This document shows positions 2,727-19,518 of a DNA stretch of 32,000 bases, in pieces. The DNA comes from Candidatus Kuenenia stuttgartensis. Lineage in GTDB: Bacteria; Planctomycetota; Brocadiia; Brocadiales; Brocadiaceae. The notes below the pieces were generated by a model that was not told the origin of the DNA, made no database searches, and saw only the letters and a list, made by a program, of their open reading frames with translations. How positions within the stretch are numbered: the first letter of the stretch is position 1; the number at the start of each line of letters is the position of its first letter. Location: NCBI RefSeq assembly GCF_900232105.1, contig NZ_LT934425.1, positions 840,001 through 872,000 of the forward strand, given 5' to 3'. Position numbers and translations under genes: made by a program.

Positions 2727-2819
2727 TGTAACACTTTAGTTTTTTGAAAAATCTGTCCCTGCTTTAACCACATGTTTCAGCATGGGGGTTAACAAAATAA
2801 AAATGTCAGGTCATATAAG
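2727..2819. repeat. Partial, degenerate copy of a MITE-like element (left terminal repeat plus decayed interior)
   Basis: The 26-nt string tgtaacactttagttttttgaaaaat at 2727-2752 is identical to 26379-26404. The following ~65 nt align only loosely by eye with the interior of the 26380-26532 element (atgttt..gca..ggggNtaa..tgtca..cata). No right terminal repeat was found. Confidence 0.45.
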
Positions 2820-2964
2820 TTTTGATACTCTTTAATGGAGTAATGGCGCAGATTTAGAACCTGAAATGTTATATACAGAAAGTATTTTTATTACGGATAT
2901 AAAGAATGATGTTTATTCATGAATTGTCCTTCTAATCACACTTTATACACTGAGGAGCCACTCA

Positions 2965-3709: not shown

Positions 3710-3723
3710 ACAGAGAAGAAGAT

Positions 3724-3990: not shown

Positions 3991-4086
3991 ACATTTCAGA
4001 TTCGCCATTAAATATTTTGCCAAAAAGCACGCACTGACGAATGGAAGTGTGCAAAGAAATTATTTTTAACGGTAAGGAGCCAATGT

Positions 4087-4878
4087 ATGACAATGAAAAA
4101 AACTTGTATTTTATTGGTATGGTTAATAGCAATTGTCGTTTTTTACGAGACTAAAACAAGCAATGCCGAAGAATCCATTACGCAACTGGCTCATGACGAT
4201 TTATATAAAAAGGCGATGTTTCTTAAAGAAGAGGGTAAAAGTGATGAGGCTATAAACACGTTTAATAAATTCATGGAAGTCAGCAAGGACGAATTGAAAA
4301 GAACTGATGCCATGTTAGAACAATGCATGATTATGAAAGACATGAAAGCCCCTGCGTGGAAGTATAAGGCAAAAGAAGCACAGCAAAAGGTTAAAATTCT
4401 TTACCGGTCTCATTATTTGAACCCGGAATACTGGCTTGTCTATGCAAAATTTGCAGCGCTTATCAATAGGGAGCGTGATGTATATGGGGCATTTAAAAAA
4501 GCTTTCTTTTATAAGCCGGATTATCCGGAAGGTTACATCGTAAAGGGAGATTTGTACGGCTACCTTGCAAAAAATACCGATCCGTCAGAATCCACAGTTA
4601 GTACTTCAATCGATTCTGCATATGAGCCTGTTAGTAAAGAGAATTCGGCCCGTTACAATAAAGGAAAAGAGGCAAAGAAGTCTTACGAAATTGCACTCAG
4701 AAATTCAACACTGGGCAACGACAAAAAGGCTTATATTCATTATAAAATTGGTACACTGGAAATGGATATTTTATCAAATAAAGAAGATGCCATAAGAAAC
4801 TGGAAGAAGACGGCTGAGCTTTCTCCTGACAGTATTTATGGGAAAAAATCCGTAGAACTCCTGAGCGGGAATCCGTGA
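4087..4878 (+). CDS. Secreted TPR-like repeat protein (function unknown)
   Basis: 263 aa. AAGGAG RBS at 4074-4079, 7 nt before ATG 4087. N-terminal signal peptide MTMKKTCILLVWLIAIVVFYETKTSNA/EE. Helical repeat segments look TPR-like. First gene of the coupled operon. Confidence 0.55.
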   Translation: MTMKKTCILLVWLIAIVVFYETKTSNAEESITQLAHDDLYKKAMFLKEEGKSDEAINTFNKFMEVSKDELKRTDAMLEQCMIMKDMKAPAWKYKAKEAQQKVKILYRSHYLNPEYWLVYAKFAALINRERDVYGAFKKAFFYKPDYPEGYIVKGDLYGYLAKNTDPSESTVSTSIDSAYEPVSKENSARYNKGKEAKKSYEIALRNSTLGNDKKAYIHYKIGTLEMDILSNKEDAIRNWKKTAELSPDSIYGKKSVELLSGNP

Positions 4879-5699
4879 TTAATGGCTTGACCGTTGATCT
4901 TGAGGATTGGTATCACATCTGTGGCGTAGAGGGCTATTCTGATCCGCAAAAATGGGATACTTATGAAAACCGTATAATAAGGAATACTGACAAGGTACTT
5001 ACTCTTTTAAGAACGTATAAAGTAAAGGCTACTTTTTTTGTCCTCGGATACATTGCCTTCAAGGAACCTGGTCTTATAAAGACAATTAAGAGCGAGGGAC
5101 ATGAAATAGCAACTCATGGCTTTTATCATAAGAGGATCTTTGAGATGACGGAACGGGAGTTTGAAGAAGATGTCAATAAATCCATTTCTGTTATATCATC
5201 AAATATCAACGAGAGGGTACTGGGTTTTAGGGCGCCGGAATGGTCGATCCGGAAGAATACTTTATGGATGCTTAATGCATTAAGGAAATACGGTATTCTT
5301 TATGATTCAAGCATGGTTCCTCTTACAAGAATGGGATATAGGGATTACCCTGTTTATCCATGTTGCTACAATACTGATTATGGAAAGATTTGGGAATTTC
5401 CGCTCACCACAACAAGGCTGTTTTGGGAACGTCTTCCCTTTACGGGTGGCTTACCGTTAAGACTATGTCCTTATTTTTATATTGTATCAGAAATAAAAAA
5501 AATTAACCGCATGGGGTTTCCTGCAATGGTCTATATACATCCGTGGGAATTTGACAAAGAACAACCACGCATTGATTTGCCGTTAAGCAGGAGATTTATG
5601 CACTATTTCAACATAAGTGCCACTCCCAGGAAGACAGAAGGCTTACTTAGCAATTTTCAATTTGCCCCTATCAAAAATATATTGGGGATTACAACATGA
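4875..5699 (+). CDS. Polysaccharide deacetylase family protein (CE4, DUF3473/XrtA-associated type)
   Basis: 274 aa. GTG start within a GTGA overlap with the upstream stop. N-terminal LTVDLEDWYH and ATFFVLGY...HEIATHGFYH motifs are typical of CE4 deacetylases of the PEP-CTERM/XrtA-associated type. Confidence 0.8.
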   Translation: MINGLTVDLEDWYHICGVEGYSDPQKWDTYENRIIRNTDKVLTLLRTYKVKATFFVLGYIAFKEPGLIKTIKSEGHEIATHGFYHKRIFEMTEREFEEDVNKSISVISSNINERVLGFRAPEWSIRKNTLWMLNALRKYGILYDSSMVPLTRMGYRDYPVYPCCYNTDYGKIWEFPLTTTRLFWERLPFTGGLPLRLCPYFYIVSEIKKINRMGFPAMVYIHPWEFDKEQPRIDLPLSRRFMHYFNISATPRKTEGLLSNFQFAPIKNILGITT

Positions 5700-5896
5700 G
5701 AGATATGTATTATCTTAAATCCGTATCCACCTTTTGCATTATTTATAGCTTAATAGTCGCCTTCTTATATGTATTTACAGTTGTTACGGGTTTTGTCGGG
5801 AGTATTTTTATTTTTGTAACGATTTTGTTTCTGCTTTTTTTTTATTATAATGGGTTCGTAAAATTTAAAAAAATAAGGAACCGTTTTCTACGTTGA
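5696..5896 (+). CDS. Small hydrophobic membrane protein (about two TM helices)
   Basis: 66 aa. ATGA overlap upstream and TTGA overlap downstream. Two long hydrophobic stretches and a basic C-terminus (KFKKIRNRFLR). Coding status is supported mainly by the translational coupling. Confidence 0.5.
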   Translation: MRDMYYLKSVSTFCIIYSLIVAFLYVFTVVTGFVGSIFIFVTILFLLFFYYNGFVKFKKIRNRFLR

Positions 5897-7107
5897 AGAA
5901 GAGAGTTGTTATTACTGGAATGGGCATAATTACCGCCCACGGTATTGGTAAGGAAATAACCTGGAAAAAGATCGTTTCAGGCGCATCAGGTATTAAAGAA
6001 ATAGAGTCTTTCGATTCCTCAAAATATCCCGGAAAGTGCGGTGGAGAGGCAAAGCAGTTTACCTCTGCTTCCGAAATAAGAAATTTAAATGCGGCACGTC
6101 TTGACAGGGCATCGCATTTATTGATTCATGCTTCACGTGAAGCGCTTCTGGAATCAAACGTACTCCCATACATCAAAAATACAAATATACTTTTATCTTT
6201 AGGGACAACACTTGGTGGAATGATTTCCGGAGAGTTGTTTCATAAAGAAGTTCTGAAAAAAGGGCTGAAAAAGGCACGCATTTCTTTATTAACTGATTAT
6301 CTTGCAAATTGCCAGGCGATTAATTTATTCAGGGAATTTCAATTAAAAGGAAATTACAATATATTTTCTAACGCATGTGCATCCGGTACAAATGCCATAG
6401 GTTGTGCGTATAATTCTATACAATCAGGCCTTTATAAAATTGCCATTTGCGGAGGATACGATACTATGAGTGAATTTACCTTTGCCGGTTTCAGCTCTCT
6501 TATGGCAATGACTCCTACTAAGTGCAGGCCGTTTGATAAGAATAGAAACGGGCTGGTACTGGGGGAGGGAGTAGGAATTTTAATTTTAGAGGAATTGGAA
6601 CACGCCGTGAAACGAAATGTACGAATATTGGGCGAAATAATCGGGTACGGGGAATCTTCCGATGCGTATCATATGACAAGCCCCGACCCGACAGGTGAGT
6701 TCGCATTTCGTGCCATTATGAATGCCTTGAATGATGCGGATAATCCAAAAATTGATTATATCAATGCACATGGCACCGGAACTATTTATAATGACGCGCA
6801 GGAATCCAATGCAATATTGAAAGCGTTTGGAGAGGAAACACAAAACATACCCGTAAGTTCAATAAAACCCATGGTTGGCCATATCCTTGGTGGGGCTGGG
6901 GCGGTAGAGGCTATAGTATCATTGCTTTCAATTGAGCGTAAAGCCGTTCCTCCAAATATAAATTATTGCACGCCTGATCCCGTTTGCAATTTGAACATAT
7001 CAAAGGAAACAGTGTATTGCGATATAAAAACCGTTTTGTCCAATTCATTTGGTTTTGGGGGGACTAACGCAACTTTAATACTCAGGGAATATACATGGAT
7101 CGGATAG
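5893..7107 (+). CDS. Beta-ketoacyl-ACP synthase II family (FabF-like), catalytically complete
   Basis: 404 aa. TTG 5893 is the only start codon upstream of the conserved RVVITGMGIIT N-terminus. Cys-His-His triad present: SNACASG (Cys162, nt 6376-6378), YHMTSP and NAHGTGT. GHILGGAGAVEA and FGFGGTN are also present. Confidence 0.9.
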   Translation: MKKRVVITGMGIITAHGIGKEITWKKIVSGASGIKEIESFDSSKYPGKCGGEAKQFTSASEIRNLNAARLDRASHLLIHASREALLESNVLPYIKNTNILLSLGTTLGGMISGELFHKEVLKKGLKKARISLLTDYLANCQAINLFREFQLKGNYNIFSNACASGTNAIGCAYNSIQSGLYKIAICGGYDTMSEFTFAGFSSLMAMTPTKCRPFDKNRNGLVLGEGVGILILEELEHAVKRNVRILGEIIGYGESSDAYHMTSPDPTGEFAFRAIMNALNDADNPKIDYINAHGTGTIYNDAQESNAILKAFGEETQNIPVSSIKPMVGHILGGAGAVEAIVSLLSIERKAVPPNINYCTPDPVCNLNISKETVYCDIKTVLSNSFGFGGTNATLILREYTWIG

Positions 7108-8156
7108 TGTTAACAGGCGTGGGGCCATTGACGCCTATTGGAAAAGGAAAAGAAGATTTCTGGAATGCAGTAGTGAACAACTTCCCAGGCATAAAGAAGA
7201 TAACAAAGTTCATGCCCGATCAAGAATTTTACGGGGGAGAAATTAATGATATCCATTTTGACGAATATATCCCCGACACAAAATTCAGACGTGCCACTGA
7301 AATATCTAAATTTACTATGTCCGCCGCAAAGATGGCAATGGATGACGCTCAGGTTGATTCTCCCAATATTAAAAATCTTGGGCTAGTTGTCGGCTTAACC
7401 CACGGTGCTCTAAACTATACACAATCCTATCACGAACTTCTGGTAACCGAAGGTCCTGAATCTGCCAGTCCCATACTCTTTTCTGATTCTATATTGAACG
7501 CCCCCGCAGGTAATACTTCTATCTGCTTAGGTATTCACGGTCCCGTTCATACTTTGATTGGGGGCAGTGTAACAACCATACGGGCGATCATGCTCGCAGT
7601 ACAATTATTAGCCACAAAAAAAATGGAAAAGTCAGTTATTGCTTCTGCCGAAGAATTAAACAAATTTTCACTATACTGTTACTACAGGCTGGGGATAAAC
7701 ACATTGTCTGAAGGTGCCGGTGCTCTCTTAATAGAACCGGAAGATACAAAGAACAATCAAGTCCCGTATTGTTATATTTCCGGCTTTGCTTCACAAACCA
7801 ATCCTTCAAATTTACAGTCCGCGTTGGAAGAATCCGTTGAAACCGCGTTGAAAAAAGCCAATTTAAAAGCAAAAGACGTTGATCTGTTAATGACGTCCCC
7901 TTCTTTCCCCAAAGTACAGCAGCTTGATGCATATGAAATTCCCATGGGTAGTTTGGATTCAATTACGGGAAATGCATTTGCTGTTTCTACCATATGGAAC
8001 GTTATTCTATCGGCGTTGTGTATAAGGCATGGGGCAATACCATTGCCTATTCTCAAAAATTCAGCGCCGATTAACAACGAGATCAGGAACGTAATGATTT
8101 GTGCAACTGAGAGCGAAGGGGTTGCGGGAGTATTAATTTTATCGAAAATATCATGA
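7095..8156 (+). CDS. Ketosynthase-like protein lacking the catalytic triad (KS-beta/CLF-like partner)
   Basis: 353 aa, overlapping the upstream KS by 13 nt. KS-like N-terminus (RIVLTGVGPLTPIG) and NAPAGNTSICLGIHGP. By eye alignment the nucleophile Cys position is Ser158 (GGSVTT, nt 7566-7568). Both His motifs are replaced (QTN for HxT, MTSPSFP for NAHGTGT, GNAFAVS for GHxLGAAG). Confidence 0.75.
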   Translation: MDRIVLTGVGPLTPIGKGKEDFWNAVVNNFPGIKKITKFMPDQEFYGGEINDIHFDEYIPDTKFRRATEISKFTMSAAKMAMDDAQVDSPNIKNLGLVVGLTHGALNYTQSYHELLVTEGPESASPILFSDSILNAPAGNTSICLGIHGPVHTLIGGSVTTIRAIMLAVQLLATKKMEKSVIASAEELNKFSLYCYYRLGINTLSEGAGALLIEPEDTKNNQVPYCYISGFASQTNPSNLQSALEESVETALKKANLKAKDVDLLMTSPSFPKVQQLDAYEIPMGSLDSITGNAFAVSTIWNVILSALCIRHGAIPLPILKNSAPINNEIRNVMICATESEGVAGVLILSKIS

Positions 8157-8169
8157 AAATAAACGCGGC

Positions 8170-9243
8170 TTGTTTAAGACTATGAATTATAATTTTCCCG
8201 ATACAAGATTATTATTAAGCCAATTTCTTGTACAAAGATATCAAACAGAAATGCTTTTGAAATTTGCGCAAGAAGAAGGAATCCTGCGGCTTCTTGAGTC
8301 TATTGATACATTTCACATCAATGAAGCTATAGAAGCGCTTCAAAATAAGCTCAATTATCAATTGCAGGACAGGTTGAGAAGAAGAATGATACATACACTT
8401 ATTTATCTATTACAGGAGTGTGGATATTTAAGCCTTGAAAACACCAGATATCAATGGCATATGATTGAAAATGCTGCTCCGAAATTAAAAGACGAGGAAT
8501 ATAAAATTATTGAAGTTTCATTTAAGGGAGTGGTGGGGTTTTTTGAAGAGTGTATCAAATACAGCGGTGATTTTTTGCGTGGAGCAACGCCACGTTTCAA
8601 TTTTAATGCGGAATTTACGTCGATATGGGAAAGCTTTCTGGGTAATGCAGAGTTCAACTTTGCCAGATCCATTCTTATAGAATTGTTAATGTTTGAAAAA
8701 AAAGAAAACAGTAATATTCTCGTTCTTTGCTTTGGCCCAGGTTTTGATTTGGTAAAGATAAGTGAGCGATTTTCCAATGTGAAATTATTTGGTCTTGATT
8801 TTGCCGAGAACTTTTACGATAAAGCCAAAAGCAAATTATCAAATTCTCATACCATCGAATGGGTACGTTCTGACCGTTGGAAAGGTTTTGGCTTTCCATT
8901 ACCTTTTCAGGATAATTGCATGGAAGTTGTGTTTTTTGGATGTGCTGATCCATATATCCCCGTTGAAAAAAGAAGATATGCTTATAAGGAAATCTTCAGG
9001 GTTTTGAAGCATGAGGGTTCACTTGGCATTTTGACCAACAGTTACCCTGACCAGGAGAAAAAATACGTAAAAGATAAATGGATAAGATTGGGAATACTTG
9101 CTCATGATTTCTGTGAAAGTGTCTGCGAGGGGTGGCAGGGTTTTCATGAAGCAGTGAATTCAATAAAACTTTTTAAAGAGATTGGGTACCATACGAATAC
9201 CGTAATGCTCAATGCTTCGATCTGGAGATTGGACAAACCTTGA
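8170..9243 (+). CDS. SAM-dependent methyltransferase with an N-terminal helical (O-methyltransferase-like dimerisation/wHTH-like) region
   Basis: 357 aa from TTG 8170; ATG 8182 is an alternative start. Class I methyltransferase motif I variant ILVLCFGPGFD, then LFGLDF and a post-I acidic residue. The assignment of the ~170-aa N-terminal domain is tentative. Confidence 0.7.
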   Translation: MFKTMNYNFPDTRLLLSQFLVQRYQTEMLLKFAQEEGILRLLESIDTFHINEAIEALQNKLNYQLQDRLRRRMIHTLIYLLQECGYLSLENTRYQWHMIENAAPKLKDEEYKIIEVSFKGVVGFFEECIKYSGDFLRGATPRFNFNAEFTSIWESFLGNAEFNFARSILIELLMFEKKENSNILVLCFGPGFDLVKISERFSNVKLFGLDFAENFYDKAKSKLSNSHTIEWVRSDRWKGFGFPLPFQDNCMEVVFFGCADPYIPVEKRRYAYKEIFRVLKHEGSLGILTNSYPDQEKKYVKDKWIRLGILAHDFCESVCEGWQGFHEAVNSIKLFKEIGYHTNTVMLNASIWRLDKP

Positions 9244-10421
9244 GCGGAAGAATATTGATAACGGGCATTGGTTTCATTACACCAATCAAACCTTTTCAGG
9301 GGGTGAACGAATTCTGGCATGCATTGTGTTCCGGGCAGGATCTTATAAAAAAAACGAGACTTCCTTTGCTTGAAATTGATGGGGAATGGCCAATGGCGGA
9401 AATTAGCCTTTCCTGCATAACGCAAACCGTTCAACCGGAAGATAAATTTCAATATCTTATGAAAAGAGCTTTGAACATGGCAATTGAGGATGCAAATCTG
9501 AAAGATTGCTCAAATATAGGTTTCTCCATGGGTACGGTTTTGGGAAATATGTTATTAAAGGAAAAAAAATTGGCTGATGCAAAAAAGCAAAAGAAAGAAT
9601 ACTGTGGTGAACAAGATTCCCTTTCTAATGTGACATTGCAATTTTCTTCCCTATATAACCTAAACGGACCAAAATATACCGTCTCAACCGCATGTACTTC
9701 CGGTACTGATGCCATAGGGATTGCAGCCAGAAGCATACTATCCGGCAAAACTGATATTATGATTGCCGGTGGAGCTGATATTTTGAGTGATTTTGCTATT
9801 ATCGGATTCCATGCCCTTCAGGCAATTACAACTGATAAGGTAAGACCCTTCGATAAAAACAGAAGCGGACTCGCACTCGGCGAAGGGGCGTCATTTGTTG
9901 TGCTTGAGTCCGAGAAAAGCGCGGCAAAAAGAAATGCAAAGGTATATGGCCGGGTCATGGGATATGCGTCGCGTGCTGACGCCAATCATTTAACAGGCCC
10001 TCATCGCGAAGGACGAGGCCTTGCCGAAGCAATAGACAGGGCAATGGGTCAGTCGGGAGTAAAACCGGGTGATATTAATTATATTAATGCACACGGGACT
10101 GGTACGGTTTACAATGATCTTATGGAAACAAAGGCAATAAAGCGGGTATTTGGAAGGTTGGCATATGATATCCCAATCAGTTCGACAAAGTCAATGCTGG
10201 GACATTCCCTGGGTGCGGCGGGGGCTATCGAAGCTATATGTTGCCTGCTGGCAATAAAAAACGGAATTGTACCTCCTACCATTAACTTTCAGGAATGCGA
10301 TCCCGACTGCGATCTTGATTATACTCCGAATATTGCAAGAAACCACCACGTGAAAATGGCAATGTCTCTATCCGCCGGTTTTGGCGGCCAAAACTCAGCG
10401 ATCATATTAGGTGGCGCATGA
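9240..10421 (+). CDS. Beta-ketoacyl-ACP synthase II family (FabF-like), catalytically complete
   Basis: 393 aa. TTG start within a TTGA overlap, required by the conserved GRILITGIGFITP N-terminus. STACTSG (Cys152, nt 9693-9695), NHLTGP, NAHGTGT, GHSLGAAGAIEA and GFGGQN are present. Confidence 0.9.
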   Translation: MSGRILITGIGFITPIKPFQGVNEFWHALCSGQDLIKKTRLPLLEIDGEWPMAEISLSCITQTVQPEDKFQYLMKRALNMAIEDANLKDCSNIGFSMGTVLGNMLLKEKKLADAKKQKKEYCGEQDSLSNVTLQFSSLYNLNGPKYTVSTACTSGTDAIGIAARSILSGKTDIMIAGGADILSDFAIIGFHALQAITTDKVRPFDKNRSGLALGEGASFVVLESEKSAAKRNAKVYGRVMGYASRADANHLTGPHREGRGLAEAIDRAMGQSGVKPGDINYINAHGTGTVYNDLMETKAIKRVFGRLAYDIPISSTKSMLGHSLGAAGAIEAICCLLAIKNGIVPPTINFQECDPDCDLDYTPNIARNHHVKMAMSLSAGFGGQNSAIILGGA

Positions 10422-11005
10422 TTCCAGCGGTTACCGGAATAAGTATATTGAACAGCAATACTCCGGATGGTAAAATTCCGGCTTTTGAGGGACTGGATAA
10501 GAAGTGCCGAATATATAATGCTCTTGATGGTTTGGTGGTTGCTTCCGTCGGTAATGTCTTGCTAAGCGCTGGAATTCCGGTTCCTGTTGCAAATGATGAC
10601 ATTAGTCTTTATCTAGGAATTGATATTTCCATCGAAGATATCAAAAATGAATATTTTAATAACATTCTGGACGAAGGAATTCTTGGAGCAAGTCCGCAAC
10701 TTTTCCAATTTACAACACCAAATTCTCTTGCCGCTCAAGCGACAATAGCTTTCGATTTAAGGGGAGAGTGTATTACCATGCCCATCGGGTCTTCATTCAG
10801 GGAAGTTGTGGAATATGCATGCGAATGTATTATCGGACGAAATATCAAAATGGCAATTGCAGGTTGTATAAGAAAGGTCAAGGCATTAAATCTCCATACA
10901 AGTGGTCATGTATACAGTTCTGAATTTTTTTTTATTGAGGATAGGGAAAGCGCAATGCGGAGGGGTGTGAAAATTTACCCTAATGCGCTGGACAGTGTTT
11001 TATGA
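10418..11005 (+). CDS. Half-length ketosynthase-like protein (N-terminal thiolase-fold half only, no catalytic Cys)
   Basis: 195 aa with ATGA overlaps at both ends. SPQLFQFTTPNSLAAQATIAFDLRGE resembles the KS segment preceding the active site. By eye alignment the nucleophile position is Ser125 (PIGSSF, nt 10790-10792). The C-terminal half carrying the His residues is absent. Confidence 0.55.
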   Translation: MIPAVTGISILNSNTPDGKIPAFEGLDKKCRIYNALDGLVVASVGNVLLSAGIPVPVANDDISLYLGIDISIEDIKNEYFNNILDEGILGASPQLFQFTTPNSLAAQATIAFDLRGECITMPIGSSFREVVEYACECIIGRNIKMAIAGCIRKVKALNLHTSGHVYSSEFFFIEDRESAMRRGVKIYPNALDSVL

Positions 11006-12309
11006 AGATCTTTTGTGCGCCAGACGGACTTTCCGCTGAGACAATCAATAATAATCAGAATGAATTGTTGCTTGCCACGATAGACTATGCGCGACAAATG
11101 TCTCCCTTTTATAAAGAAATCCTTCAAAATGCCGGTACCTTGCAATCCGCCGCCCATGCAAGGGAATACCTGGATAAATTGCCTTTTACCACAAAACAGG
11201 ATATATCAAATAACAATTGGAATTTCCTGGCAGTAAAAAAACAGGATATCGCGGAGTTTGTGTCTACTTCCGGCACCACGGGTGAACCGGTATTTCTTGC
11301 GCTTACGGAAAACGACTTAGAACGTCTTACCTGTAGCGAAGAGCGAAATTTTAATACTATAAACGCTGGCAAAGAAGATTTATTTCACATTGTTGTAACC
11401 TGCGACAATCTATTTACCGCTGGCATTGCATATTACAGAGGACTCATAAGGCGCGGCGCTTCCGTCGCAAGGATAGGGCCTAAAAGCATTATCAGGCATT
11501 TTCAACTCATTAAAGAATTACGGCCTACCGGAATTGTCGCGGTACCATCGTTCATGCATTACCTGATACGCCATGCAAATGAAATTGGAATAAATATTCC
11601 CGATTTGGGCATTGAGAAAATAGTTCTCATAGGCGATAGCATACGAAATACGGATTTTAGTACGAATACACTTGGCAGCTTTATTGAGAATTCATTTAGA
11701 AGGAAAGTTTTTTCCACATACGGTATCTCAGAGGGGCAAATTTCATTTGGTGAATGTGAATTTCACCACGGACTACACGGACATACGGATTTTGTTTACG
11801 TAGAAATTGTGTCGGATGAGGGTATCCCGCTACAAGACGGCGAGATTGGCGAAATGGTAATTACCACCCTTCAACACGAAGGGATGCCTCTGATCCGTTA
11901 CAAAACGGGAGATATTACCTTTAAACTTTCGGGACAGTGTTTATGCGGAAAAAACTCCGTTCGAATTGGTCCGGTTTTGGGACGTAAACACCACCGGTTA
12001 AAGGTAAAAGGGGTTACTCTCTATCCAAAGACAATTGAAAATGCAATTTTTCATTTAAAGGATGTGATAAACTACCAGTTGGAAGCATATACCGGCGATA
12101 CCAAAACAGACCACATTATTTTACGAATAGGTTCCCATAGAAACGATGATAAATTCAGATCATCCTTAATTGATATTCTTCGTGCGAAAACAAGAGTAGT
12201 TCCTGAGATTGAGATAGCTTCGCCAAACGAGATAGAGAAGAAACTCTTTGAAGGGGGCAGTAGAAAGGCGATTACTTTTAAGGATAGGAGGATTAAATTA
12301 CATGAGTAA
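11002..12309 (+). CDS. Phenylacetate-CoA ligase-like (PaaK / coenzyme F390 synthetase family) adenylate-forming enzyme
   Basis: 435 aa. Adenylation core motif FVSTSGTTGEPVF. Its size, the RYKTGD motif and the overall pattern are typical of the PaaK-type short ANL enzymes. Confidence 0.8.
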   Translation: MKIFCAPDGLSAETINNNQNELLLATIDYARQMSPFYKEILQNAGTLQSAAHAREYLDKLPFTTKQDISNNNWNFLAVKKQDIAEFVSTSGTTGEPVFLALTENDLERLTCSEERNFNTINAGKEDLFHIVVTCDNLFTAGIAYYRGLIRRGASVARIGPKSIIRHFQLIKELRPTGIVAVPSFMHYLIRHANEIGINIPDLGIEKIVLIGDSIRNTDFSTNTLGSFIENSFRRKVFSTYGISEGQISFGECEFHHGLHGHTDFVYVEIVSDEGIPLQDGEIGEMVITTLQHEGMPLIRYKTGDITFKLSGQCLCGKNSVRIGPVLGRKHHRLKVKGVTLYPKTIENAIFHLKDVINYQLEAYTGDTKTDHIILRIGSHRNDDKFRSSLIDILRAKTRVVPEIEIASPNEIEKKLFEGGSRKAITFKDRRIKLHE

Positions 12310-13354
12310 CACTATGGACATGATCAATGAACTAAGCTTTTCAAATGATGAGATCTCCGATTGCCTGGCGAATGGAAGCATTCTTTCAATAGAACTTGAA
12401 TTTACCAAAAAGTGTAATCTCAGATGCCTTTACTGCTATTCCAGTGCCGGGTTCGCAGCGGAAAATGAATTGAGCCTGGAAGAAATGAAATCGGTGGTGG
12501 ATCAGGCAAAAGGGCTGGGGGCAAAGAAAATAATCCTCCTGGGAGGCGGCGAACCACTTCTATACGAGGGTGTGGTAGATATCATTAAATATATTAATTC
12601 AATCGGATTGCAGCAAATACTCTTTACAAACGGCGTATTGATTGATAAAGAAATAGCGCAAACACTATACAGAAATAAAGTTTCTGTGGTAATAAAATAT
12701 AATAGCTTTAATCCCGAGGTTCAGGACATGCTTGCAAATGCCAAAGGAACTTATAAACAAATAACCAGAGGACTAAAAATATTGATGGAATCGGGGTATC
12801 CCCGTGAAGATTTGGGACTGGGTATACAGTCCGTAATATGCAAACAAAATATTAACGAGATCCCGGAAATGTGGATGTGGGCGCGGAAAAGAAATATAAT
12901 TCCATATTTTGAAATATTGACTTACCAGGGCAGGGCAAGGGAAAACAAGGATTTGATTGTGCCTACCCTGGAAATTAAGGAGATATTTAAACGGCTGGAG
13001 CAAATCGACAGGGAGCATTTTGGCATTCAGTGGAATTCTCGTCCGACAATTGCCGCCTTTTCCTGTAAACGCCATCTCTATAGCTGCCTTATCAATTCCC
13101 AGGGACATGTACAGCCGTGTACGGGCGTTGATATGTCGGTGGGAAACATCAGGGATAAATCACTTGGGGAAATTCTGGTAAGCAGTGGAGTTATAAAAGA
13201 CCTGAGAAATATTTACGAAAACATAGAAGGACAGTGTAAAACGTGCGAATATAATAAAGAATGTTACGGTTGCAGGGGAAACGCTTACCAAATGACGGGA
13301 AATCATTTGGCTTCAGATTCCACATGTTGGCATTGTGAAAAAAACCCCAAATGA
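12302..13354 (+). CDS. Radical SAM enzyme with C-terminal SPASM-type auxiliary Fe-S domain
   Basis: ATG 12302 is preferred over the ORF-track start at 12248; it overlaps the upstream gene by 8 nt. CxxxCxxC motif KKCNLRCLYC (nt 12413-12436). GGGEPLL SAM-binding motif. C-terminal Cys pattern CX12GX4C (CKRHLYSCLINSQGHVQPC) followed by CKTCEYNKECYGC...CWHC. Confidence 0.85.
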   Translation: MSNTMDMINELSFSNDEISDCLANGSILSIELEFTKKCNLRCLYCYSSAGFAAENELSLEEMKSVVDQAKGLGAKKIILLGGGEPLLYEGVVDIIKYINSIGLQQILFTNGVLIDKEIAQTLYRNKVSVVIKYNSFNPEVQDMLANAKGTYKQITRGLKILMESGYPREDLGLGIQSVICKQNINEIPEMWMWARKRNIIPYFEILTYQGRARENKDLIVPTLEIKEIFKRLEQIDREHFGIQWNSRPTIAAFSCKRHLYSCLINSQGHVQPCTGVDMSVGNIRDKSLGEILVSSGVIKDLRNIYENIEGQCKTCEYNKECYGCRGNAYQMTGNHLASDSTCWHCEKNPK

Positions 13355-14712
13355 AAATTTTGCTTATCTCTGTTAATAACGAGATGAAACCGTACCCCGT
13401 GGCGCCATTAGGCATCGCATATATTGCAACTATTTTAAAAAATAAAGGGCATAGCGTATACGTTCTTGATCTTTGTTTTGCCGAAGATGATTACGTGGCG
13501 ATAGAAGAATCGCTGAGAAAATTTTCTCCGGATCTCCTAGGTCTATCCATCAGAAACATAGATAATTTAACCTTTAGAAAAAGTGTTTACTATCTTCCGC
13601 GGGTTAAGGAAATAGTTCGGCTTATCAAGCGCCTTACATCGGCTCAAATAATTGTTGGAGGATCGGGTTTTTCCCTTTTCCCGGAAGAAGTTTTGAGGTA
13701 TTTGCAACTTGAAATGGGTATTGTTGGCGAGGGAGAAATATCTCTTCCGCAATATATAGACGTCATTATCCATGGTGGTGAAATTAACGATATACCTAAC
13801 CTCTGTTATATAAAAGATGGGAAATACACCCGTAACAATACCCTCTGTAGTGTTGAACCTTTTACACCAAAACGGGATTTGCTAAACAATAACAAATATA
13901 TGGAACTGGGCGGTATGGCCAATATTCAATCAAAAAGGGGTTGCCCGTTTCACTGTACCTATTGCACATATCCAAGTCTGAATGGCAATACGGTAAGGTT
14001 GAGAGAACCATTGGAAATTGTTGATGAGATTAAGGAGTTAAATTCCGAATATGGAGTTGACTATGTTTTCTTTGTGGATGACATATTTAATTGTCCTGAA
14101 AAACACACTGTTGCCCTCTGCGAGGAAATAATCAGGCATGAACTTAAAATTGATTGGGCGTGTTTTGCCACACCAAAAGGAATGACGAAAGAACTTGCGC
14201 TTCTCATGTCGGACGCTGGTTGCAAGGGCATTGAATTCGGAACGGATGCCGGATCCCGAAAAACACTGAAAGCCATTGGCAAGTCTTTTACCATCGAAGA
14301 CATAGCATTTGCCACAGAATGTTGCAATAGTATTAATTTGCCGAATGCTCATTACATTATTGTTGGTGGCCCAGACGAAGACGATTCAACGCTAAGCGAA
14401 ACATTTTCACTTTTTAATAAAATAGAGCCAACCGCGGTTATTGTATTTGTGGGAATCAGGATATATCCAAACACATTGCTTTATTATAAAGCGATTGAAG
14501 ATAAAATCATCGAAAAAGATCAAAATATATTGGAACCTGTTTTTTACATCTCACCTAAGATAGACAGGGACGTTCTGCTTCAAAAAATTTATGATTACGC
14601 ACAACAAAGCCATAATTGGATTGTGCCTGGTCTTGATATTAGATGTGATACGGATATGTTAACCGTTATGAGAAAAATAGGAAAAAGAGGGCCTTTATGG
14701 GATATGATCTAG
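13351..14712 (+). CDS. B12-binding-domain radical SAM enzyme (second copy, class B-like)
   Basis: 453 aa with an ATGA overlap upstream. N-terminal cobalamin-binding-like domain (MKILLISVN...LLGLSIRN...IIVGGSG). CxxxCxxC motif KRGCPFHCTYCTY (Cys198/202/205, nt 13942-13965). Confidence 0.85.
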   Translation: MKILLISVNNEMKPYPVAPLGIAYIATILKNKGHSVYVLDLCFAEDDYVAIEESLRKFSPDLLGLSIRNIDNLTFRKSVYYLPRVKEIVRLIKRLTSAQIIVGGSGFSLFPEEVLRYLQLEMGIVGEGEISLPQYIDVIIHGGEINDIPNLCYIKDGKYTRNNTLCSVEPFTPKRDLLNNNKYMELGGMANIQSKRGCPFHCTYCTYPSLNGNTVRLREPLEIVDEIKELNSEYGVDYVFFVDDIFNCPEKHTVALCEEIIRHELKIDWACFATPKGMTKELALLMSDAGCKGIEFGTDAGSRKTLKAIGKSFTIEDIAFATECCNSINLPNAHYIIVGGPDEDDSTLSETFSLFNKIEPTAVIVFVGIRIYPNTLLYYKAIEDKIIEKDQNILEPVFYISPKIDRDVLLQKIYDYAQQSHNWIVPGLDIRCDTDMLTVMRKIGKRGPLWDMI

Positions 14713-15449
14713 TTCATTCACAAAGAGTAGTGCTGGTGACCGGCGGCAGCAAAGGCATCGGAAAAGCCATTTGCAAGGTATTTATCGGGGAAGGCGATCA
14801 TGTAATTGTAAATCACTGCAAACCAATTGATGATATAGAGAAATTAAGAGAAGAATTTTCATCTCCGCAAGGAAGCTTTTCAATTGAAAAAGCAGATGTC
14901 ACCGATTATGCGCAAATAAAACAAATGGTTGACAATATTGTGAAAAAGCATGGAAAGATAGACGTGCTTATCAATAACGCAGGTATAATTAAAGACGGTT
15001 ATATAATGCTTATGTCGGCAAAAGATTGGAACGACGTTATTAACGTAAACCTGACGGGCGTTTTCAATTGTACAAAAGCAGTGTCTGAACATATGATTGG
15101 GCAAAGGAGCGGAACAATCATCAATATAGCGTCTTTGAGTGGAATTACTGGATTACCCGGCCAGACAAATTACTCCGCCGCTAAAGGTGGTGTAATTGCA
15201 TTTACCATGGCCCTTTCAAAAGAACTTGCGCCTTTTTGTATTAGGGTAAACACCGTCGCTCCGGGAGTCATTGAAACAGATATCATTGATTCCCTCGATA
15301 AAAATAAGAGAAATAGTTACAAGGAACATATTCCTCTAAAAAGATTTGGAAAGCCGGAGGAAGTTGCATCCGTTGTCCGCTTCCTTGCATCATCCGAAGC
15401 AAGTTATATTACAGGGGAAGTTATTCGTGTATCCGGGGGATTAAATTGA
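14697..15449 (+). CDS. fabG: 3-oxoacyl-ACP reductase (SDR family)
   Basis: 250 aa. TGGSKGIGKA cofactor motif, NNAG, and Ser...YSAAK catalytic motif. Length and C-terminus (ASYITGEVIRVSGGL) are typical of FabG. Confidence 0.9.
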   Translation: MGYDLVHSQRVVLVTGGSKGIGKAICKVFIGEGDHVIVNHCKPIDDIEKLREEFSSPQGSFSIEKADVTDYAQIKQMVDNIVKKHGKIDVLINNAGIIKDGYIMLMSAKDWNDVINVNLTGVFNCTKAVSEHMIGQRSGTIINIASLSGITGLPGQTNYSAAKGGVIAFTMALSKELAPFCIRVNTVAPGVIETDIIDSLDKNKRNSYKEHIPLKRFGKPEEVASVVRFLASSEASYITGEVIRVSGGLN

Positions 15450-15703
15450 ATATGCATGACACGATCCAAAAACTCAAGGAATTACTTGTTACAAAATTAA
15501 AACTAAAAATCGGTGTAGACCAGATAAAAGAAGACACTCTGCTTTTCGGCTCAAATAGTCTGGGACTTGATTCCATAGATGTCCTGGAATTAATTATTGC
15601 TATAAAAAAAGAGTTTGGCGTTGAAATCATGGACAGAGAAACATCGGAACAAGTCTTTACCTCCGTTGGCGCAATAGCAAGATATATAGATAAAAACAAA
15701 TGA
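15446..15703 (+). CDS. Acyl carrier protein
   Basis: 85 aa from TTG 15446; ATG 15452 is an alternative start. Phosphopantetheine attachment motif LGLDSIDVLELI (Ser43, nt 15572-15574). Confidence 0.85.
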   Translation: MNMHDTIQKLKELLVTKLKLKIGVDQIKEDTLLFGSNSLGLDSIDVLELIIAIKKEFGVEIMDRETSEQVFTSVGAIARYIDKNK

Positions 15704-16140
15704 AGAAGGCATTCCCAAGTCCCCCGGAAATACTCCCACACGCATACCCGTTTATTATGATAGACAAAATCATTAAATTTGAGGAAAAGATAAGCATTGT
15801 ATGCATAAAGAATGTAAGTTTAAATGATGAATATTTGGGTGGACATTATCAGAAAAATACAAACTTCCCGGCTTTGCCGCAAGTGCTTGTATTAGAGGCA
15901 ATGGTGCAATCATCAGGATTGGTACTGGGTAACACTAAAGACAAAGTTGCATATCTGTGTTTGATAAAAGAAGCCACATTTGAAAAATCTGTTGTGGCAG
16001 GAGATCAACTCGTAATCACTTCCAGGATAACGCAATCGTTTACACCCTTTTATGTATTTGAAGCTGTTGCAACAGTAGATAGCGAGATTGCCTCCAAAGC
16101 GGTAATAACACTTTCGTTGACGATAAAAGGAACAACATGA
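15700..16140 (+). CDS. fabZ: 3-hydroxyacyl-ACP dehydratase, FabZ-like hotdog fold
   Basis: 146 aa with an ATGA overlap. LPHAYPFIMIDKI N-terminal motif. The GGHY...P..PQVLVLEAMVQ motif retains the catalytic His and Glu positions. Confidence 0.8.
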   Translation: MKKAFPSPPEILPHAYPFIMIDKIIKFEEKISIVCIKNVSLNDEYLGGHYQKNTNFPALPQVLVLEAMVQSSGLVLGNTKDKVAYLCLIKEATFEKSVVAGDQLVITSRITQSFTPFYVFEAVATVDSEIASKAVITLSLTIKGTT

Positions 16141-16985
16141 ATTTGCAGCATGTGAATTGTAACCTTTGTGGCGCTGATGATACTAAAATAATTACAGTTC
16201 AAAGCAATCATAACGTGGTAAGATGCAAGAAATGCAGCCTTGTATATGTAAATCCAAGACCGAATACTGAGCATTTAATCCATCTCTATGAAACCTATCA
16301 CCAAAGAAATGGAAAGAGAGAGTACACATGGGCAAATCTTATGGAGAGAAATTACAGGGAAGTATCGGGGTTTTTGGCGCAGGTTTTTCCCGGAAAAGGT
16401 AAAATCCTCGATATTGGATGCGGCTATGGGCATTTTCTCGAAATAATGAGGATTCTTGGATGGGTTGTTAGCGGAATTGATCCATCGCCAAATACGGTGT
16501 GTGCTGCAAACAAAAAGAATCTCAATGTTATTGAAACGTCCATTGAAGACGTTTCCCTCCCGGAAGCTTCTTTCGATGCGATAACAGCTTTTTACGTCCT
16601 GGAACATCTTCCGGATCCATACTCTGCGGTAAAAAAAATCCATTCCCTGCTAAAACCTGGAGGCGTGTTCGTCCTGAGAGTTCCACACACGACTCCTATT
16701 GTCAGACTCCTTTCATTATTCCATATAAAAAATAATCTCTACGATACCCCATACCACTTGTACGATTTTTCACCCGAAACCATTACCGTTCTGTTAAAAA
16801 AAGCGGGGTTTACAACGGTTCAGGTAAAGCCTGGCACACCGACACTTCCGGTTAATTTTTTAGAGAAAATAGTCTCCATTACATCGGGAAATATTGCCCG
16901 AATATTTTTTGCGGTCAGCGGGGGAAAATTTCTTTTCCCAGGCACAAGTAAAACCACAATTGCTTGTAAAAATCTGACAGAATAA
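16137..16985 (+). CDS. Class I SAM-dependent methyltransferase with N-terminal Cys4 zinc ribbon
   Basis: 282 aa with an ATGA overlap. CNLCG...CKKC ribbon. Motif I ILDIGCGYGHF. Also VLEHLPDP and LKPGGVF motifs. Confidence 0.8.
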   Translation: MNLQHVNCNLCGADDTKIITVQSNHNVVRCKKCSLVYVNPRPNTEHLIHLYETYHQRNGKREYTWANLMERNYREVSGFLAQVFPGKGKILDIGCGYGHFLEIMRILGWVVSGIDPSPNTVCAANKKNLNVIETSIEDVSLPEASFDAITAFYVLEHLPDPYSAVKKIHSLLKPGGVFVLRVPHTTPIVRLLSLFHIKNNLYDTPYHLYDFSPETITVLLKKAGFTTVQVKPGTPTLPVNFLEKIVSITSGNIARIFFAVSGGKFLFPGTSKTTIACKNLTE

Positions 16986-17010
16986 ACTTAACGCGTCGCG
17001 ATAGTAAAAC

Positions 17011-19518
17011 ATGGAATTTTTCTTAAAAAAGTGCGCATCATTTATCCATTCCTTTCACAAGCAAATAGTTGTTGTATTTGCTCTGCTCACGGCAGTCTCC
17101 ATAGTAACAATTTTTTACATGGAAATTAAAACGGACATAATAGACGTTCTTCCATCTAAAAATAAGAAAGTAGGCCAGTTTAAGGACTTCATTGAAAAAT
17201 ACGGTATTTCGGATAATGTAGTATTGCTGTTGGAATCGACGGAGAATGAAATTGATGAACAAACAGAACTCATAGAAACGCTTGCAAACAAACTTGCAGC
17301 ATCTCCATATATTGAGCACGTTGATTATAGCCCGTTAAAATACGAAAACAGTTTTTTTATCAATCATATACCGTTGCTTCTTGATGAAAAAGGATTGAAA
17401 CGCCTTGAAAACAGACTTACCCCAAAAGGCATCGAACGGCAAATAAGATATAATCTCCAAAAACTTCTCTCTCCCCTTAGTTCTCCAATCGATTACGAAA
17501 TGATTTCAAAAGACCCTCTTGATATTGCAGACATAGTAAAAGATTCTCTTATGAGCGCAAACAAAGAGGACAGCCTTGATATCAGTACCGGTTATTACAT
17601 CACGTCGGATTATTCAACTGCCGTTATCTTCGTTAAACCAAAGGGCAAAGGAAGGGATATGGCCTTTGTCGGTAATTTGAAACGGGAACTGGACGACATT
17701 ATCTCATTCTCAATGGAGAAAGCCGGCAATCCTTCGGACGTACGGGTGGAACTTACCGGCAACTGCGTTTTATCGGAAGAAGTGCGCCAAATTATCCGTC
17801 ATGACGTAGCATACTCTTTTCTCTTATCCGTTTTTCTCATTGCCGCACTCATATGGTTTGCGTACAGAGTAAGAGTTAAGATTCTATTGGTTATCGGATT
17901 TACCTTGTTGACGTCTCTTTCCACTACACTTGCCTTTGCATACCTGGTTTTCGGTAGTCTGAATATAGTAACAAGCGTTGTTGCGGCGCTACTTATCGGC
18001 CTTTACGTGGATTATGCAATGCATTCGGTAAATAGATTCGGCGAGGTTTTTAGAAAACTGAACAACCGGCAAAAGGCCCTGGAACAAACCCTTACCAAAA
18101 CTGGTTCTGCGATCATTATATCTGCAAGCACAACGTCGCTGTCTTTTTTCAGTATAATTGTGACCAAATTCAATGGTTTGCATGAGTTGGGTATTGTTGC
18201 AGGAATAGGAGTTTTATTATGTTTGTTATCCACGCTCTTCCTGACAAACTCTCTTCTTTACTGGATAAGTAAAAAAGGGTTGCATAAAATCCAGTTGAAA
18301 AAAGAGGTCCCTACAGGAGTTGAAAATCTTATCAAACTGCTCGTTAAAAGACCCAATAGGATACTTGCTATTAGTATTATCGTTTTTATCATCGCGGGTT
18401 TTGGTGTAACAAGATTAAAGTTTAACAATGATCCCGATAGTATCATCCCAAAAGATTGCTCCTCGGTTGCTGTGGGAAAAAAACTTCAGAAAAAAATGGG
18501 TAATAAAGGGGAACCGCTTTCCATAGTAATTAAAGCTCTGGATAAAAAGGGACTATCCTTTGCCTTTGACGAACTTGAAAAACTGCTTATGCAATTGAAA
18601 GAGAATGGTCTGATTAAGGATTACAATTCGTTAAACATCTTCATGCCAGCTCCCTCCGTTCAGTTGGAAAGAAAAAGAAAAATAAAAACAATGCTGGCGG
18701 ATAATGACATACAGCCTGACGCGCTGACGAAAACGCTACTGGACTCTCTTGAAAAAAATAAATTGGTATATGAGAAAACGTATGTAAACAACTACATAAA
18801 AAATGTAACAAATGCGCTGTATAACGCGCAATCCATTGGCCTGGAAGACGTTGAAATGCTATCTTCTCCAAGAGTAAAGCATTTTTACAATAAAGAAGAC
18901 CTGTCCATTGCCTCTTATATTTATCAGGGGAATAATGGATGGGACATAGAAACCATTAACAAAATTCAGCAAATGGTTGATTCGAAAGGGCAGAATTGGA
19001 TATTTACGGGGAAACCGATCTTGTTCAATGAAATAAAACCTACCATCATTTGGGGCAGCGCTTTAGCATCGATCATGGCGCTCCTGATGAATTTTGTTAT
19101 TATTTATTTGTACTTCAGAAAAATACTTCATACGATATTTGTTTTGCTGCCGGTAACGCTGGGGTTTCTCCTGACGTTGGGGGCGATGGCCTTCCTGGGT
19201 ATTCCTTTTAACGTCATTAACGTAGGCACTATAGCTTTAGTTTTCGGGCTAGGCGTGGATTATGGCATATACGTAATGCAGGCATATGTAAGAGAAGATG
19301 AAAAAAATATTTATAGTGCACTTCGAACGAGCGGTAAAAATGTGATGATGTGCTCGGCCACAACCGTTGCAGGTTGTGGAAGTCTCGCGCTTGCAAAATT
19401 TACCGGCATTGCAACCGTGGGCCTTGTACTTTCCATAGGAGCAATTGCTTGCGCCATTACCGCGTTGCTTGTATTGCCAACAATTATTTATCTGAATGAG
19501 AGACGAATTTCACAATGA
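17011..19518 (+). CDS. MMPL/RND-superfamily lipid exporter (HpnN-like architecture)
   Basis: 835 aa. Two blocks of ~6 TM helices, each preceded by a large soluble loop. Repeated GxDY motifs (LYVDYAMH, GVDYGIYV), as in MMPL/HpnN transporters. Confidence 0.8.
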   Translation: MEFFLKKCASFIHSFHKQIVVVFALLTAVSIVTIFYMEIKTDIIDVLPSKNKKVGQFKDFIEKYGISDNVVLLLESTENEIDEQTELIETLANKLAASPYIEHVDYSPLKYENSFFINHIPLLLDEKGLKRLENRLTPKGIERQIRYNLQKLLSPLSSPIDYEMISKDPLDIADIVKDSLMSANKEDSLDISTGYYITSDYSTAVIFVKPKGKGRDMAFVGNLKRELDDIISFSMEKAGNPSDVRVELTGNCVLSEEVRQIIRHDVAYSFLLSVFLIAALIWFAYRVRVKILLVIGFTLLTSLSTTLAFAYLVFGSLNIVTSVVAALLIGLYVDYAMHSVNRFGEVFRKLNNRQKALEQTLTKTGSAIIISASTTSLSFFSIIVTKFNGLHELGIVAGIGVLLCLLSTLFLTNSLLYWISKKGLHKIQLKKEVPTGVENLIKLLVKRPNRILAISIIVFIIAGFGVTRLKFNNDPDSIIPKDCSSVAVGKKLQKKMGNKGEPLSIVIKALDKKGLSFAFDELEKLLMQLKENGLIKDYNSLNIFMPAPSVQLERKRKIKTMLADNDIQPDALTKTLLDSLEKNKLVYEKTYVNNYIKNVTNALYNAQSIGLEDVEMLSSPRVKHFYNKEDLSIASYIYQGNNGWDIETINKIQQMVDSKGQNWIFTGKPILFNEIKPTIIWGSALASIMALLMNFVIIYLYFRKILHTIFVLLPVTLGFLLTLGAMAFLGIPFNVINVGTIALVFGLGVDYGIYVMQAYVREDEKNIYSALRTSGKNVMMCSATTVAGCGSLALAKFTGIATVGLVLSIGAIACAITALLVLPTIIYLNERRISQ

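Follow-up and report, generated by a model that had tools for sequence, protein, structure and literature searches.

The 32,000-nucleotide (nt) stretch of the Candidatus Kuenenia stuttgartiensis genome analysed here (contig NZ_LT934425.1, positions 840,001 to 872,000; hereafter the window) carries three contiguous genes for a PaaK-like adenylate-forming ligase, a radical S-adenosylmethionine (SAM) enzyme with a SPASM domain and a cobalamin-binding radical SAM enzyme. This trio is kuste3344-kuste3343-kuste3342 of the kuste3335-3352 cluster and, as predicted from the surrounding genes, forms the core of an operon at window positions 213-21999 that resembles a type II fatty acid synthase (FAS) or polyketide synthase (PKS) system. 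We propose, with a probability of about 0.5, that the trio is the starter-priming and radical-tailoring module of this pathway, and that the pathway makes a specialised lipid which is not specific to ladderanes. [quoted passage not shown] The three genes are:

11002-12309, plus strand: PaaK-like adenylate-forming ligase, kuste3344 (Pfam AMP-binding, 43 bits)
12302-13354, plus strand: radical SAM enzyme with a full SPASM domain and without an N-terminal RRE, kuste3343, 350 amino acids (aa)
13351-14712, plus strand: cobalamin-binding (class B) radical SAM enzyme, kuste3342, with the motif CPFHCTYC (CX3CX2C)

A previous sequence-only reading of the window had described the three genes as overlapping, and the start and stop positions at 11002, 12302 and 13351 bear this out. 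The ATG at 11002 overlaps the stop codon of the upstream gene (ATGA), the ATG at 12302, with AGGAGG in front of it at 12286-12291, comes 8 nt ahead of the ligase stop at 12309, and the ATG at 13351 overlaps the stop codon of the SPASM gene (ATGA). The start at 12302 is common to the orthologs and to the published kuste3343 construct, and was used here instead of the upstream TTG at 12248 given in the list of open reading frames (ORFs). In most related loci, the ligase-SPASM junction is likewise estimated to overlap. The overlaps are real but not distinctive of the trio: since 13/16 junctions between positions 4087 and 21999 overlap by 4-16 nt, the trio is part of one long, translationally coupled operon.

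In kuste3343, Pfam detected both the Radical_SAM domain (85 bits) and the SPASM domain (35 bits; cut-off 21.5). All cysteine patterns previously listed for this middle enzyme (CxxxCxxC, CX12GX4C, CX2CX5CX2C and CWHC) were found. The radical SAM motif reads CNLRCLYC (CX3CX2C, residues 38-45) and is invariant in 18 orthologs, CX12GX4C reads C-KRHLYSCLINSQ-G-HVQP-C, and CX2CX5CX2C, one residue shorter than the canonical CX2CX5CX3C, reads CKTCEYNKECYGC. The alignment of the 18 orthologs showed C38/C42/C45, C255, C273, C312, C315, C321, C324 and C342 to be invariant and C262 to be an extra, nearly invariant cysteine, while the second cysteine of CWHC is not conserved. The protein is thereby predicted to carry the complete set of seven SPASM cysteines for two auxiliary clusters, as described by PF13186 and by the Grell-Drennan definition (CX9-15GX4C, then CX2CX5CX3C, then a last C). 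The best NCBIfam families, AhbD and NirJ2, act on tetrapyrroles and scored ~161 bits versus cut-offs of 500; with all named families far below their cut-offs, the enzyme represents a distinct, uncharacterised family. An AlphaFold2 (AF2) model (pLDDT 75, pTM 0.80) places the first core strand at residue 29, so that ~28 residues precede it; SkfB aligns from its residue 109. The structural route to function was abandoned, because Foldseek against the PDB returned generic SPASM/twitch neighbours only (SkfB, PqqE, MoaA, SuiB, anSME and viperin; TM 0.52-0.69) and gave no functional resolution.

The motifs of the ligase are intact (TSGTTGEP, YGISEG, YKTGD and a C-terminal GGSRK). Its best NCBIfam match is the flexirubin ligase FlxY (NF053551), with 422.5 bits over the full length, below the equivalog cut-off of 520; FlxY was also the best match for 25/25 ligase orthologs. 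The PaaK model TIGR02155 reached 159.7 bits and not its cut-off of 646.3, the best PDB match was PaaK (4r1l, 155 bits over the full length), and no paa genes were found in the window. On these similarities, kuste3344 belongs to the PaaK-like branch of adenylating enzymes only and stands far from true PaaK. As a side observation, the ligase orthologs have an invariant C252 and a CxC at 313-315 (SGQCLCGK), which could be a metal or redox site.

The third enzyme has the domain composition of class B radical SAM proteins, with an N-terminal B12-binding domain (PF02310, 60.3 bits; cut-off 32.1) and a CX3CX2C core (Radical_SAM PF04055, 76 bits), and is predicted to bind cobalamin. It scored 440 bits with TIGR04072, "lipid biosynthesis B12-binding/radical SAM protein", which is above the equivalog cut-off of 360, and 23/23 orthologs from several phyla matched the same model at E <= 1e-20 (best E 1.6e-172). 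The next NCBIfam relatives are BzaD (242 bits; cut-off 450) and TsrM (144 bits), both of which methylate aromatic carbons; TsrM is also the best PDB match (6wte, 131 bits). Mid-chain methyl fatty acids such as 10-methyl-C16:0 occur in anaerobic ammonium-oxidising (anammox) and NC10 bacteria. Their synthesis by the B12 enzyme was considered and set aside, as no paper links the genes to these products and the cluster is too elaborate for one methylation; it may be a sub-activity.

Next, we looked at how far this gene arrangement extends. A motif scan of one genome per species yielded 75 related loci, onto which the window proteins were mapped. Of the loci with sufficient flank, 52/63 have the ligase gene directly upstream of the SPASM gene; 39/56 loci have a B12-type radical SAM gene no more than 0.9 kb downstream, and the SPASM gene is embedded in FAS genes in 62/75 loci. 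A cluster of 17-19 genes in the same order is present in the Brocadiales (Jettenia, Brocadia and others). The full colinear cluster was also detected in contigs labelled Nitrospirota, Thermodesulfovibrionales and Dissulfurispiraceae (e.g. our loci L008, L011, L013 and L070), in contigs labelled NC10/Methylomirabilis (L027, L034 and L036) and in many groundwater contigs labelled "Deltaproteobacteria"; several of the full clusters sit on long contigs of 170 kb to ~1 Mb. Reduced forms occur in Desulfobulbaceae, Maridesulfovibrio (isolate genomes among them), Omnitrophota and Hydrogenedentota. Neither the 75 loci nor the top 120 named proteins included a Scalindua record, though a motif-based scan could miss one, and we found no statement in the literature on Scalindua carrying kuste3342-3344 orthologs.

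A degenerate half-ketosynthase-like protein (half-KS; kuste3345 in the window) is conserved in many full and reduced clusters at differing positions. In the Desulfobulbaceae locus L045, a 168-aa homolog of it (11055-11561 of that locus; E 2e-5) is encoded between the SPASM and B12 genes, and in Omnitrophota a second B12-binding radical SAM gene, B12a, takes the place between these two. These arrangements indicate that the travelling unit comprises one or two B12 enzymes together with the half-KS, ligase and SPASM proteins. L045 additionally contains PlsC-like and LpxL-like acyltransferases, a GT2-DUF2062 protein and a Ketoacyl-synt_2 protein, which we take to be the accessory set of aryl-polyene clusters. 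When the ligase, SPASM and B12 proteins were concatenated for a neighbour-joining tree, the copies from Brocadiales clustered with those labelled Nitrospirota and were nested among them, which suggests lateral transfer or else mis-binned or mislabelled contigs. Two "Nitrospirota" bins (L003 and L018) fall inside the Brocadiales set of this tree.

In the pathway that we propose, the FlxY/PaaK-like ligase would adenylate a free, non-acetate carboxylic acid and load it as a starter onto the pathway ACP (or CoA). Where a type II system has its own ACP and pairs of ketosynthase and chain length factor, short PaaK-like ligases typically prime the ACP with a non-acetate starter, as the adenylating enzymes do in aryl-polyene and flexirubin clusters. 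The half-KS would probably hold the ACP-bound substrate, and the SPASM enzyme would abstract a hydrogen atom from this short tethered substrate, with its two auxiliary clusters accepting the second electron, which would give an oxidative outcome (desaturation, decarboxylation or C-C coupling). The B12 enzyme would methylate an unactivated or sp2 carbon or, less likely, take part in a cobalamin-assisted ring closure. Two pairs of ketosynthase (KS) and chain length factor (CLF), FabG and FabZ would then extend the product, the methyltransferases, a CrtI-like flavoprotein, a GT2 glycosyltransferase, a deacetylase and an ATP-grasp enzyme would decorate it, and an HpnN-like transporter would export it. 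The final product is probably a specialised envelope lipid, tailored and glycosylated. Its occurrence in many anaerobes means that the pathway is not by itself the one for ladderanes.

That the enzymes act early and on short tethered substrates fits the small pocket of AmxMT1, the Brocadia fulgida ortholog of the operon methyltransferase MT1. In pull-downs, AmxMT1, which is similar to polyketide C-methyltransferases, bound to an anammox ACP, and the size of its pocket suits a small beta-ketoacyl group (PMC9821293). The anammox dehydratase amxFabZ, in turn, prefers chains of C8 or shorter; this result comes from the paralogous cluster I and thus lends weak support to short-substrate action here. 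A more far-reaching version, in which the half-KS, ligase, SPASM and B12 enzymes form an O2-independent module that builds and primes a carbocyclic or otherwise radical-forged starter on the ACP, seems to us quite unlikely. If true, many anaerobes would hold an undetected class of envelope lipids made by radical SAM chemistry on ketoacyl and not isoprenoid chains, and in anammox bacteria the module, or its cluster I duplicate, would supply the ring-bearing part of ladderanes.

Several points weigh against a starter-priming and radical-tailoring module. All similarities to characterised enzymes lie far below the family cut-offs, so that the sequence does not reveal which substrate is used or which type of reaction is carried out. 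Among solved structures, those nearest to kuste3343 in sequence are peptide maturases (SkfB, 73 bits; PqqE, 51 bits), with the archaeal lipid enzyme Tes (7tol) at 29 bits in the same PDB search. The proteins that were undetectable in the Escherichia coli work of 2016 were kuste3342 and kuste3343 (PMC4790861), and the ligase could act late by re-activating a finished acid for head-group transfer (Rattray 2009, PMC2649909). Moreover, the taxonomy of the related loci consists of submitters' labels on metagenome-assembled genomes.

Many SPASM enzymes are peptide maturases, and together with the matches to SkfB and PqqE this could point to kuste3343 modifying a ribosomal peptide or protein, be it the 66-aa product of kuste3350, whose ORF is conserved in 22 loci, or a product encoded elsewhere. 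We consider such a function very improbable. The sequence-only reading had seen no precursor-peptide-like ORF in the operon, had favoured acyl-ACP, acyl-CoA or lipid substrates for this reason, and had named a conserved precursor adjacent to the genes in orthologous loci as the finding that would speak against it. Six-frame searches across 76 loci for small ORFs (18-120 aa) located outside large genes and conserved from locus to locus recovered only the ACP family, in 38 loci (plus antisense shadows), and the kuste3350 family, in 22 loci. By its predicted features, kuste3350 does not look like a precursor peptide: it reads as a two-helix membrane protein encoded ~6 kb upstream of the SPASM gene, and a homolog was not found in 53/75 related loci. 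Pfam searches of the operon proteins detected no RRE or PqqD-like domain in the SPASM enzyme or as an operon partner, a peptidase or ABC exporter was not found in the operon context, and the gene is embedded in FAS genes in 62/75 loci. The negative result for a conserved precursor makes a non-peptide substrate well supported, in line with the FAS/PKS-like operon around the trio, and, taken together with the binding of AmxMT1 to an anammox ACP, a lipid or acyl-ACP is the best reading of the substrate. The small-molecule families at the top of the NCBIfam lists raise a different question, namely whether cofactor biosynthesis genes (heme/d1-type AhbD/NirJ; B12 lower-ligand BzaD) lie in a lipid operon by chance, as the former NCBI name of kuste3343, "moaA/nirJ/pqqE family of cofactor synthesis proteins", might also be taken to say. 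With 161 and 242 bits far under the cut-offs of 500 and 450, the B12 enzyme passing another equivalog model (TIGR04072) and the synteny with KS, ACP and ligase genes kept across phyla, this is hardly credible and was rejected.

The radical SAM pair might instead act on an aromatic or heterocyclic acid in free form, with C-methylation and O2-independent oxidative decarboxylation as examples, and the ligase would then activate the tailored acid as the head group of a pigment lipid of the aryl-polyene or flexirubin kind. We rate this as unlikely. The nearest named relatives of all three enzymes act on aromatic or tetrapyrrole small molecules (FlxY and PaaK; BzaD and TsrM; AhbD/NirJ2) and the accessory genes of L045 are aryl-polyene-like, but the scores all lie under the family cut-offs, aromatic-acid supply genes (TAL or UbiC-like) were not seen in the window, and the half-KS and ACP that travel with the trio are a better fit to tethered substrates. 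To our knowledge, aryl lipids have not been reported from anammox bacteria or from Desulfotalea. The view of the trio as a candidate block for forming C-C bonds or rings, also taken in the sequence-only reading, restates the ladderane hypothesis of 2006-2009; it appears chemically reasonable by analogy, since both enzyme classes make C-C bonds in lipids, with Tes and Gms (SPASM) and GrsA/GrsB (B12 domain) forming C-C bonds or rings in archaeal lipids (PMC13459092). Applied to ladderanes directly, the SPASM and/or B12 enzyme would form the fused cyclobutanes, or the ligase would load a separately made ladderane acid onto the ACP, to be extended by three or four C2 units ("type b" route). The organism does make ladderanes and the cluster has been proposed for this role (PMC2649909), labelling data fit a separate synthesis of linear and ladder parts (PMC10139942), and the ACP bound by AmxMT1 (BROFUL02173) has a tag adjoining the B. 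fulgida cluster I genes BROFUL02170-02171. Nevertheless, we hold a direct role in ladderane synthesis to be improbable. While loci were found in the ladderane-producing genera Kuenenia, Jettenia and Brocadia, the cluster is not restricted to such producers: colinear clusters are present in Nitrospirota-, NC10-, Deltaproteobacteria- and Omnitrophota-labelled contigs, with the same content and order across these and other phyla, which are not known to make ladderanes, whereas the literature treats ladderanes as unique to anammox bacteria. Desulfotalea psychrophila has the DP1855 and DP1853 homologs but acyclic lipids only (PMC2649909). Published transcript levels of these genes in Kuenenia are 5-10 times under those of cluster I, with 6.5-17.7 fragments per kilobase per million (FPKM), compared with 28-122 for cluster I and 60-449 for canonical type II FAS. 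Finally, cluster I, reported to occur in ladderane producers only, contains a B12 radical SAM enzyme of its own and no ligase or SPASM enzyme.

Ladderane synthesis is a long-standing open problem for which these genes have been candidates for ~20 years, and what our analysis usefully adds is negative and directional, namely that the trio is not directed at peptides, also occurs outside ladderane producers and is weakly transcribed in Kuenenia. Being widespread and transcribed at a tenth to a fifth of the level of cluster I, it is a less suitable target than cluster I for work on the cyclobutane rings. The starter-priming and radical-tailoring module that we favour can be studied with its cluster in cultivable carriers such as Desulfotalea psychrophila (strain LSv54, DP1853-DP1855 region), Maridesulfovibrio sp. 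FT414 (locus L056) and Maridesulfovibrio isolates.

Apart from the trio, the following genes of the operon were annotated:

213-2697, plus strand: second B12-binding radical SAM enzyme, B12a (213-1556), and ATP-grasp enzyme
4087-5699, plus strand: unknown 263-aa protein kuste3352 and polysaccharide-deacetylase-like protein kuste3351
5696-5896, plus strand: 66-aa hydrophobic small membrane protein kuste3350
5893-7107, plus strand: FabF-like ketosynthase KS1, kuste3349
7095-8156, plus strand: non-canonical FabF (CLF-like), kuste3348, in which the N-terminal KS domain alone was detected
8170-9243, plus strand: SAM methyltransferase MT1, kuste3347, ortholog of AmxMT1 (PDB 8HD2, 415.7 bits)
9240-10421, plus strand: FabF-like ketosynthase KS2, kuste3346
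10418-11005, plus strand: 195-aa degenerate half-ketosynthase-like protein, kuste3345 (weak PF00109, E 7e-4)
14697-16985, plus strand: FabG-like reductase kuste3341, ACP kuste3340 (15452-15703), FabZ-like dehydratase kuste3339 and SAM methyltransferase MT2 kuste3338
17011-21999, plus strand: HpnN/MMPL-like RND exporter kuste3337, CrtI/phytoene-desaturase-like flavoprotein kuste3336 and GT2 glycosyltransferase kuste3335 (20959-21999)

The best matches of B12a are HpnJ (120 bits) and BchE (102 bits), both under cut-off. B12a and the ATP-grasp gene lie outside the published limits of kuste3335-3352, and in loci from Brocadiales, Nitrospirota and others they form a continuous block with the cluster; as B12a belongs to the conserved cluster, the number of radical SAM enzymes is three and not two. 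Between the ATP-grasp gene and the gene that follows it in the cluster is a gap of 1,389 nt, filled by a nucleotidyltransferase/HepT-like toxin-antitoxin pair (2965-3709) together with a short N-terminal fragment of DarG type (3622-3990), all on the plus strand. The same gap measures 3-37 nt in 7/11 measurable related loci (range 3-790), and the toxin-antitoxin region is an insertion into the operon in Kuenenia. We also observed a mosaic pattern of similarity between the window and loci L001, L004 and L007, in which the left part (213-5699) is unlike 5893-21999. At the left end, identity to Brocadia-type loci is 92-93% for B12a, 86-88% for the ATP-grasp enzyme and 78-83% for the deacetylase, compared with 73-75% to Jettenia; the core genes are slightly nearer to Jettenia (SPASM, 70% vs 66%; ACP, 80% vs 68-69%). 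Such a pattern points to anammox genera having recombined or transferred parts of the cluster among themselves.

The small protein kuste3350 (GRAVY 1.13, two helix-length stretches, no PP-binding match) is identical to the published construct, and in 22 loci it is conserved with its place between the genes for the deacetylase and KS1. Its hydrophobic profile makes both existing annotations look wrong, namely the NCBI name "helicase loader DnaB" and the listing as a 66-aa "ACP" in Table 2 of Javidpour 2016 (PMC4790861); it is probably a small membrane subunit of the pathway. Active-site substitutions of kuste3348 have been listed previously (PMC2649909). The similarity of the half-KS kuste3345 to ketosynthases is confined to their N-terminal half, and the active-site cysteine is missing (the sequence there is ITMPIGSS); the protein probably serves as a CLF-like partner or as a scaffold, and may bind ACP or acyl groups. 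A ring-forming PKS of the cispentacin type was considered for KS2 and rejected, since its 267 bits to AmcF compare with 346 bits to an ordinary FabF, which marks the similarity as generic. In PDB sequence searches, no solved anammox protein stood out for the operon ACP and FabZ, and MT2 gave generic methyltransferase matches only. Further downstream, on the minus strand, lies an Rnf/Nqr-like operon (26583-31959), in which a 480-aa ORF (28233-29675) holds two Rnf-Nqr membrane-subunit domains and apparently represents two fused subunits.

The locus itself is well known from published work. It is said to have been considered for ladderane synthesis since the Kuenenia genome paper of Strous in 2006. 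Rattray 2009 proposed the cluster for this pathway and described a synteny with Desulfotalea psychrophila that takes in the ligase as well as the homologs DP1855 and DP1853 (PMC2649909). Javidpour 2016 expressed all candidate genes in E. coli, which led to no new fatty acid (PMC4790861), and according to papers from 2023-2026 (including PMC10139942) ladderane ring formation is still without experimental knowledge. Our literature search for kuste3344, DP1853, DP1855, GSU0460 and TIGR04072 found nothing past Rattray 2009 and Javidpour 2016. The label of kuste3344 is "phenylacetyl-CoA ligase", and that of kuste3343 and kuste3342 "SAM radical enzymes". The identity of the locus was established directly: GenBank CP049055.1 (assembly GCA_011066545.1) encodes the SPASM protein with every residue identical, a 7,053-nt stretch of this record occurs letter for letter in the window, and databases list the proteins under Candidatus Kuenenia stuttgartiensis (UniProt Q1Q258 and Q1Q260; locus tag KsCSTR_17540). 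Translated codon-optimised constructs and primers in the kuste3338-3350 range (Javidpour 2016) agree with the gene starts in the window. They begin with MKIFCAPDGLS for kuste3344, MSNTMDMINELS for kuste3343 and MKILLISVNNE for kuste3342, and agree for kuste3345, kuste3347, kuste3348, kuste3338 and kuste3350 as well. New here are the breadth and colinearity of the cluster beyond anammox bacteria, the wider cluster boundary with a third radical SAM enzyme, the half-KS protein in the travelling core and the mislabelling of kuste3350. These comparative points refine the known picture and do not change it.

Comparing the window to known systems, the SPASM maturases of ribosomally synthesised and post-translationally modified peptides (RiPPs; PqqE, SkfB, AlbA, SuiB and CteB) share the radical SAM core and SPASM fold with kuste3343 (Foldseek TM 0.6-0.69), whereas the window shows no RRE, PqqD-like partner, precursor gene, protease or ABC exporter as in such systems. 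AhbD and NirJ of the alternative heme and heme d1 pathways, the best-scoring named families, are similar in length to kuste3343, have no RRE and act on a small molecule; unlike them, kuste3343 scores ~161 bits against 500 and has no tetrapyrrole gene context. The archaeal enzymes Tes/Gms (SPASM) and GrsA/GrsB (B12 domain) belong to the same two radical SAM classes as the window pair and act on inert lipid carbons, forming C-C bonds and rings. In contrast to the window, their substrates are isoprenoid ether lipids, they occur without an ACP or ligase context, and there is no meaningful sequence similarity past the radical SAM core.

The published kuste3335-3352 cluster is the same locus without any sequence difference, extended leftwards here to B12a and the ATP-grasp gene. 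Anammox cluster I (kuste3603-3608; amxACP, amxFabZ, amxFabF2/FabFmut, PDH and B12 radical SAM) belongs to the same organism and shares the ACP, FabZ, KS/CLF pair, CrtI-like flavoprotein and B12 radical SAM enzyme. It differs in being reported as restricted to ladderane producers, in being highly expressed and in having no ligase, SPASM enzyme, methyltransferases or exporter, whereas the window cluster is widespread and weakly expressed. With respect to the aryl-polyene/flexirubin type II PKS systems (ligases FlxY and ApeH), the window stands apart by its three radical SAM enzymes, its CrtI-like flavoprotein and a FlxY score of 422 versus the cut-off of 520, and an aromatic-acid supply gene, a LolA-like protein and a thioesterase were not seen in it. 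The gene content that defines aryl-polyene clusters, namely KS with truncated CLF, ACP, ketoreductase (KR), dehydratase (DH), an adenylating starter enzyme and an MMPL exporter, is nevertheless present in the window, and both share the PaaK-like adenylating enzyme, the KS and truncated CLF pairs, the dedicated ACP, KR and DH, a methyltransferase, an MMPL/RND exporter and a glycosyl- or acyltransferase.

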